Below, piece by piece: positions 32,534 to 33,016 of a stretch of DNA of 33,016 bases. Source of the stretch: Escherichia coli. Lineage in GTDB: Bacteria; Pseudomonadota; Gammaproteobacteria; Enterobacterales; Enterobacteriaceae. The stretch is from NCBI RefSeq assembly GCF_003334385.1, contig NZ_QOWN01000050.1; one strand, written 5' to 3'. The position numbers and the translations under genes were made by a program. Under the pieces are notes generated by a model, which was not told the DNA's origin, did not search any database, and saw nothing but the letters and a program-made list of their open reading frames with translations. The first letter of the stretch is position 1; every line of letters starts with the position of its first letter.

Positions 32534-32720
32534 TATCAGGAAGATGTTCAGAGGAATATTTAGACATCGTTATACCAATCGAAACATATATTCATGAAAT
32601 ATATATAAATATTTTCCTAATTGTTCTTATCTGACAGATATCTCACTTAAGGCTTTCTTATAAATCTGTAGGGTTTCGCCTGTCAGCAGACAAATAACCC
32701 GATAAAACAAGGATGAGCAG

Positions 32721-33016
32721 ATGAGCGGAAAACCGGCGGCGCGTCAGGGCGACATGACGCAGTATGGCGGTAGCATTGTCCAGGGTTCAGCCGGGGTACG
32801 CATCGGTGCCCCCACCGGCGTGGCCTGTTCGGTGTGCCCCGGCGGGGTGACGTCCGGCCATCCGGTCAATCCGCTGCTCGGTGCAAAGGTCCTTCCCGGT
32901 GAAACCGACATCGCCCTGCCCGGCCCGCTGCCGTTCATTCTCTCCCGCACCTACAGCAGTTACCGGACAAAAACGCCCGCGCCGGTGGGGAGCCTCGGCC
33001 CCGGCTGGAAAATGCC
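32721..33016 (+). CDS. rhsC: Rhs core protein, N-terminal 98 codons; runs off the window
   Basis: MSGKPAARQGDMTQYGGSIVQGSAGVRIGAPTGVACSVCPGG... is the conserved Rhs N-terminus; AAGGA Shine-Dalgarno upstream; GC-rich after an AT-rich leader. Assignment to rhsC rests on the ybfA neighbour. Confidence 0.85.
   Translation, partial: MSGKPAARQGDMTQYGGSIVQGSAGVRIGAPTGVACSVCPGGVTSGHPVNPLLGAKVLPGETDIALPGPLPFILSRTYSSYRTKTPAPVGSLGPGWKM

Follow-up and report, generated by a model that had tools for sequence, protein, structure and literature searches.

Identity of the locus at the end of the window

The window, as the whole analysed stretch of 33,016 nt of Escherichia coli DNA is called here, ends inside an rhs gene, and this raises the question of whether the AT-rich stretch in front of that gene marks the edge of an accessory Rhs element whose toxin tip and immunity gene lie beyond the last base. 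The window carries, in order, a tRNA cluster, asnB, nag, glnS, chiP, fur, seqA, pgm, speF-potE, kdpFABCDE, ybfA and the start of rhsC. It is K-12-like and aligned with positions 696,863-729,878 of strain MG1655 at 99.94% identity, with 18 mismatches and 2 gaps, while the closest genome in the collection was that of SCU-104 (99.97% identity, 9 mismatches and 2 gaps); none was identical to it. Positions 32200-33016 matched the rhsC loci of MG1655 and of strain G4/9 exactly. The features around the boundary are given in Table 1.

Table 1. Features at the left end of the RhsC element, in window positions
Feature	Position	Strand	Basis
ybfA, 68 aa, last backbone gene before the element	32272..32478	+	ORF list, MG1655/RefSeq annotation
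Intrinsic terminator of ybfA (9-bp GC-rich stem, GAAA loop, T6 run)	32505..32532	+	RNA fold
RhsC leader, part specific to this locus; the element begins at 32533	32533..32602	+	Homology with empty sites stops at 32532
Leader part shared among Rhs loci; probably holds promoter and 5' UTR	32603..32720	+	Recurs upstream of other Rhs genes
Candidate RcsB-type (BglJ-RcsB) activator box TAAATATTTTCCTAA	32606..32620	+	Sequence match, conservation among Rhs leaders
Initial 98 codons of rhsC, encoding a short PAAR-like N-terminus (aa 1-45) and the start of DUF6531	32721..33016	+	Profile match; cut by the window end

We are highly confident that the region between ybfA and ybgA holds the left boundary of the RhsC element, a classical E. 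coli Rhs polymorphic-toxin locus, whose leader would be the regulatory region of the rhsC operon, kept silent and probably activated through the box. The left end of this element is well known to consist of the 188-bp AT-rich leader and the GC-rich start of rhsC, and the finding is in that sense already known and ordinary. The RhsC element of E. coli K-12 (rhsC-ybfB-ybfO-ybfC-H-repeat) occupies the same site and has the same leader, the same first 296 nt of rhsC and the same left junction as the window. The source strain differs from MG1655 by the mismatches and gaps noted above, and its layout of tips and orphan genes may also differ, as seen in SCU-104 and G4/9. The locus between kdpA and the photolyase gene corresponds to the conserved Rhs locus 5 of Jackson et al. 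2009 (PMC2935791).

Left boundary and distribution of the RhsC element

The original prediction, that an Rhs accessory element begins here, was borne out by genomes that lack it. In UPEC 536 and strain 10035776-3, ybfA lies directly before ybgA and the element is absent. Alignment of the empty with the occupied site placed the left junction at 32532/32533 of the window, directly after the T-run of the ybfA terminator, so that the predicted start of 32536 falls within 3 nt of the true edge. The right junction lies at 738962/738963 of MG1655, in which the RhsC element measures 9,568 bp, and the element takes the place of about 9 bp of the empty site. No target-site duplication or terminal repeat was seen when the empty and occupied junction sequences were read by eye. 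Since ybfA abuts ybgA in the genomes with an empty site, the leader (32533-32720) is part of the element, not of the backbone. The gene ybfA itself was present at occupied and empty sites alike, and its terminator, for which folding of 32490-32540 gave -29.4 kcal/mol (z = -9.95), was also kept in the genomes with an empty site.

The arrangement of ybfA, leader and rhs gene was found in 3,682 of the 5,426 complete E. coli genomes, and an intact ybfA-ybgA junction in 1,307 of them. The element is thus accessory in the sense of presence and absence, being missing from some E. coli with a definable empty site. In E. albertii, the left junction was the same as in the window.

The leader has itself received insertion sequences in other strains, with window positions 32631-32643 as the target. 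In strain MB10, an IS1 with a 9-bp duplication of 32631-32639 lies between the box and the start of rhsC, and in strain N96 an IS66 at about 32643 is followed by a vgrG pseudogene and a gene with an S-type pyocin domain, which replace rhsC. In addition, the Rhs leaders at three loci of Citrobacter amalonaticus (L016, L017 and L019) likewise start right after the terminator T-run of the upstream gene. Taken with the start of the RhsC leader after the ybfA terminator (window 32527-32533), these hint at a preference of Rhs elements for positions just 3' of a terminator.

Base composition across the boundary

The AT-rich character that had been predicted for the 185 bp before rhsC was confirmed by the counts: the ATG lies at 32721, positions 32536-32720 make up exactly 185 bp, and 32536-32721 has a GC content of 32.8%. 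The predicted switch to a GC-rich Rhs core was equally evident, with 67.8% GC over 32722-33016 against 51.2% for the whole window. This 295-nt rhsC fragment (GC3 76.5%) is the most GC-rich stretch of its size in the window. No GC step in the window exceeds that across 32721 (+0.35), a value reached by 0.05% of positions; the second largest, +0.33, lies at the speFL/kdpE boundary.

The further claim, that the leader stands out from the intergenic DNA around it, was wrong. Only 1.4% of all 186-nt segments are as AT-rich as the leader, but among the 18 intergenic segments with a length of 50 bp or more, two surpass it, namely 23961-24193 (25.8% GC) and 19736-19858 (30.9% GC). The former is the spacer between speFL and kdpE, which exceeds all other intergenic segments of the window in AT content and whose GC content drops to 18% in the lowest 100 nt.

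These spacers bear on the alternative that the AT-rich stretch is simply the backbone intergenic or promoter DNA between ybfA and rhsC, outside any accessory element, and that the switch reflects a GC-rich gene beside a normal spacer. Other spacers of the window are indeed as AT-rich or more, and the one next to the leader, between kdpF and ybfA, has 36.9% GC and falls to 23% over 100 nt; AT-richness alone is therefore not distinctive of the leader. However, the genomes with an empty site lack both 32533-32720 and the rest of the element, and the distal 118 bp of the leader are found again in front of Rhs genes elsewhere on the chromosome, which makes this alternative highly improbable. What sets the leader apart is its absence from empty-site genomes, not its AT-richness.

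The rhsC fragment and its N-terminus

The open reading frame at the window end was correctly taken for the start of an Rhs core. Its 98 codons matched positions 1-98 of the NCBIfam model RHS_core (NF041261) with an E-value of 4.6e-61 and 206.9 bits, the cut-off of 2000 bits being set for the whole protein and out of reach for a 98-codon fragment. In the full RhsC, the Pfam domain DUF6531 covers aa 46-123. The start of the core ORF is near-identical in RhsA and RhsB of E. coli K-12, which occupy other insertion sites (yibF-rhsA and nikR-rhsB) and carry other tips and immunity genes than RhsC.

Ahead of DUF6531, aa 6-15 of RhsC (window 32736-32765) read AARQGDMTQY, a sequence that resembles the prePAAR motif. 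This motif, AARxxDxxxH, precedes transmembrane helices and a split PAAR domain (PMC7773334), as in the prePAAR/Eag-dependent effectors Salmonella Rhs1 and Pseudomonas Tse6/RhsA. RhsC shares the AARxxD part with these effectors but differs from them in that Tyr replaces the zinc-binding His, no hydrophobic or transmembrane segment lies between AARQGDMTQY and the start of DUF6531 at aa 46, and no significant PAAR domain follows. Searches for a PAAR domain able to cap VgrG found none in RhsC: the last PAAR strand alone was matched, and below threshold, with an E-value of 0.18 for Pfam PF05488 and 16.4 bits for NCBIfam T6SS_PAAR_dom, whose cut-off is 124.

The short N-terminus of the RhsC type was also detected in Rhs genes of Pseudocitrobacter, Citrobacter and Lelliottia, downstream of vgrG-like ORFs, and in Paracidovorax. 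It is therefore a module conserved within this Rhs clade rather than a truncation specific to K-12. The vgrG-linked, type VI-secreted Rhs effectors of Pseudocitrobacter, Citrobacter amalonaticus and Lelliottia share with RhsC the N-terminal pattern MSGKPAARxGDMT..GG.IVQGS..V.IG..GVACSVCPGG, DUF6531 and the Rhs core. Their genes lie directly 3' of a vgrG-like ORF after a short spacer, with neither an AT-rich leader nor the box, whereas the gene upstream of rhsC is ybfA with its own terminator, and no gene of a type VI secretion system was present in the window. Loci of the vgrG-linked kind have vgrG, often along with an Eag chaperone gene, directly before the rhs gene; among the homologous loci, vgrG-like ORFs were found upstream at L012, L018, L022 and L023 only.

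Core, tip and immunity genes in close relatives

Rhs proteins form a shell of YD repeats that encloses a C-terminal toxin, which is freed by autoproteolysis at a junction motif and, in strains equipped with a type VI secretion system, delivered by it. The producer is protected by the product of the downstream gene, and tips are swapped by recombination between the main core and orphan core fragments. K-12-type strains are not known to have a type VI secretion system, and the delivery of Rhs toxins in the source strain is therefore doubtful.

It had been proposed that a core/tip junction and an immunity ORF would follow downstream of the window, and this check was run in close relatives. In MG1655, RhsC (1,397 aa) scored 2683 bits against RHS_core, above the cut-off of 2000, and contains YD repeats and an Rhs_assc_core domain at aa 1170-1247; the junction PISNIDPLGL at aa 1238-1247 is followed by an AT-rich tip of 150 aa and then by ybfB. 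The GC content falls from about 0.62 in the core to 0.31-0.43 over the tip and ybfB. After ybfB comes an orphan core fragment with its tip (ybfO) and ybfC, then remnants of the H-repeat (ISAs1). In SCU-104, the Rhs protein at the ybfA locus scored 2656 bits against RHS_core with the junction PVQYIDSMGL; here, the ybfO-type tip is fused to the main core and only ybfC is present. The relatives thus combine YD repeats, Rhs_assc_core and a junction with a GC-rich core, an AT-rich variable tip, a gene in the immunity position and orphan modules. The kind of tip and immunity-position gene that had been expected beyond the window edge was in this way found in these relatives.

Substantial variation in this cargo was observed, with three different tip layouts seen at the ybfA locus among relatives. 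Strain G4/9, whose leader is identical to that of the window, carries an extra tandem copy of the 3' core fragment of rhsC (rhsC') with ybfB (positions 19072-20912 of its locus, L001), an example of how recombination between core repeats duplicates tip and immunity genes. A third tip occupies the ybfA locus in Nord122, while O157:H7 and JX21CE8 carry the ybfC type with further immunity-like genes. Counts gave 2,536 genomes for the K-12 tip plus ybfB, against 3,518 for the ybfO-type tip plus ybfC. Neither tip, nor YbfB or YbfC, matched any Pfam or NCBIfam family, so these are putative toxins and immunity proteins by virtue of their position. Since tip and immunity cargo differ even among near-identical strains, the 7-10 kb downstream would be the strain-specific part of the locus.

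Judged from these relatives, the ORF beyond the window edge would be expected to run for about 4.2 kb through the YD repeats to a PxxxxDxxGL junction, followed by a variable AT-rich tip, a small gene in the immunity position, orphan tip and immunity modules and H-repeat (ISAs1) remnants. It could instead be that the rhs gene of the source strain is disrupted or truncated by an IS element or a deletion, leaving no intact tip and immunity cargo beyond. The IS1 and IS66 insertions and the rearrangements seen at the locus in some strains speak for such a disruption, as does the fact that the window ends after 98 codons; yet those codons are intact and identical to alleles of functional length, all five of the occupied-site relatives inspected have a full-length core with a tip, and the ybfC module is present in 3,518 of the 3,682 occupied genomes. 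A disrupted gene therefore appears very unlikely, and an intact core with its cargo is the preferred reading.

Architecture of the leader

The leader consists of two parts with different distributions. The distal part (32603-32720, 118 bp) is common to other Rhs loci and is near-identical at rhsA in MG1655, where the likeness to the rhsC leader extends over about the last 150 bp. The K-12 rhsB leader shares only the 15-nt box, and the RhsD leader is unrelated and has no box. In some strains, genes annotated as rhsB show 100% identity from exactly 32603, that is, from leader position 71. A total of 7,506 copies of the distal leader were counted in 3,885 genomes, with a median of two copies per genome. 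The proximal part, 32533-32602, is not shared with the copies at the rhsB locus and is loosely similar to the rhsA leader. A Shine-Dalgarno sequence, AAGGA, lies at 32709-32713.

The leader is probably the promoter and regulatory region of the rhsC operon. No sigma-70-like promoter passed a consensus promoter and terminator scan of 31900-33016, a scan that also missed the obvious ybfA terminator, which was confirmed by folding. Sigma-54 and sigma-E promoters were considered around a conserved CTGTAGG block and were dropped, as the spacing and key bases misfit when read by eye. An in vitro SELEX peak of RNA polymerase-sigmaE has been reported between ybfA and rhsC (PMC5493296), and a transcriptionally silent extended protein-occupancy domain in and around rhsC has been described in K-12 (PMC8282354). 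We infer that under laboratory conditions the leader may be kept silent by nucleoid proteins on AT-rich DNA, and that it may be activated through the conserved candidate RcsB-type box.

The strong conservation of the distal leader between rhsC, rhsA and E. albertii could also be explained if it encoded a functional small RNA, a riboswitch-like structure in the 5' UTR or a small protein. The searches spoke against this. The Rfam scan of the whole window at gathering thresholds returned nothing in the leader, the best hit of a permissive scan of 31800-33016 had an E-value of 0.23 and was far from the gathering score, and the fold of 32600-32760 equalled that of shuffled sequences (z = 0.07). The ORFs in the leader resemble chance products, one of 51 aa with a TTG start running through the terminator and one of 27 aa on the minus strand. 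We give an RNA or small protein very little credence and favour a regulatory region.

A candidate RcsB-type box

The sequence TAAATATTTTCCTAA is invariant in six leaders from rhsC, rhsA and E. albertii and opens their longest invariant run, although leader divergence among Escherichia is low and the invariance is therefore weak evidence of constraint. The rhsB leader, unrelated apart from the box, carries it in the form TAAATATATTCCTAA, its distance to the ATG being shorter by about 13 nt. With up to one mismatch allowed, it occurs once in the window against 0.01 occurrences expected, and among the fetched loci it was located only upstream of rhs genes. Box-like sequences were also observed about 95-110 nt upstream of Rhs genes without vgrG linkage, in Lelliottia (TATATATTCCTAAAG) and in Citrobacter (TATATATTCTCAAAA and AACGTTTTCCGAAT). 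The contig scan with a pattern for the rhs ORF start yielded 16 loci, too few for statistics on box conservation.

Comparison with the RcsAB box consensus TaAGaatatTCctA, as quoted in PMC3950696, revealed agreement at 11 of 14 positions; the right half, TTCCTA, is perfect, and the conserved G of the left half is missed. Sites for BglJ-RcsB were predicted in the same study at rhsA and rhsB. The box is, on this likeness, a candidate RcsB-type (BglJ-RcsB) activator site. It is conceivable, and we propose it only tentatively, that TAAATAT(T/A)TTCCTAA and its Lelliottia and Citrobacter variants, at about 95-115 nt before rhs genes lacking a vgrG link, represent a conserved activator site of the RcsB type which moves together with the Rhs core, placing 'orphan' Rhs toxins under Rcs/BglJ control with H-NS-type silencing otherwise. 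If true, the 'orphan' Rhs toxins of several enterobacterial genera would be under the control of envelope stress (Rcs/BglJ), and the box could help to explain how usually silent Rhs toxin genes are switched on. The conservation of the box across Rhs leaders is mildly new and offers a modest regulatory lead, with the leader as part of the mobile or convertible unit. Beyond that, a window that ends inside a known polymorphic-toxin locus has little importance other than for annotation.

Other features of the window

A direct repeat of 145 bp with 90% identity was found at 19858-20002 and 24194-24338, the first copy being the pseudogene ybfI, which duplicates the 3' end of kdpE. The gene ybfG (DUF2625; 19085-19843, minus strand) has an open frame in the window, G4/9 and SCU-104 and is annotated as a pseudogene in MG1655. 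Three intergenic copies of a REP-like repeat of about 120-140 bp (2537-2677, 10962-11087 and 18385-18525) were also detected with identities of 85-91%, one of which overlaps a match to Rfam ES036 (CssrF) at 2597-2639 that scored just above the gathering score.
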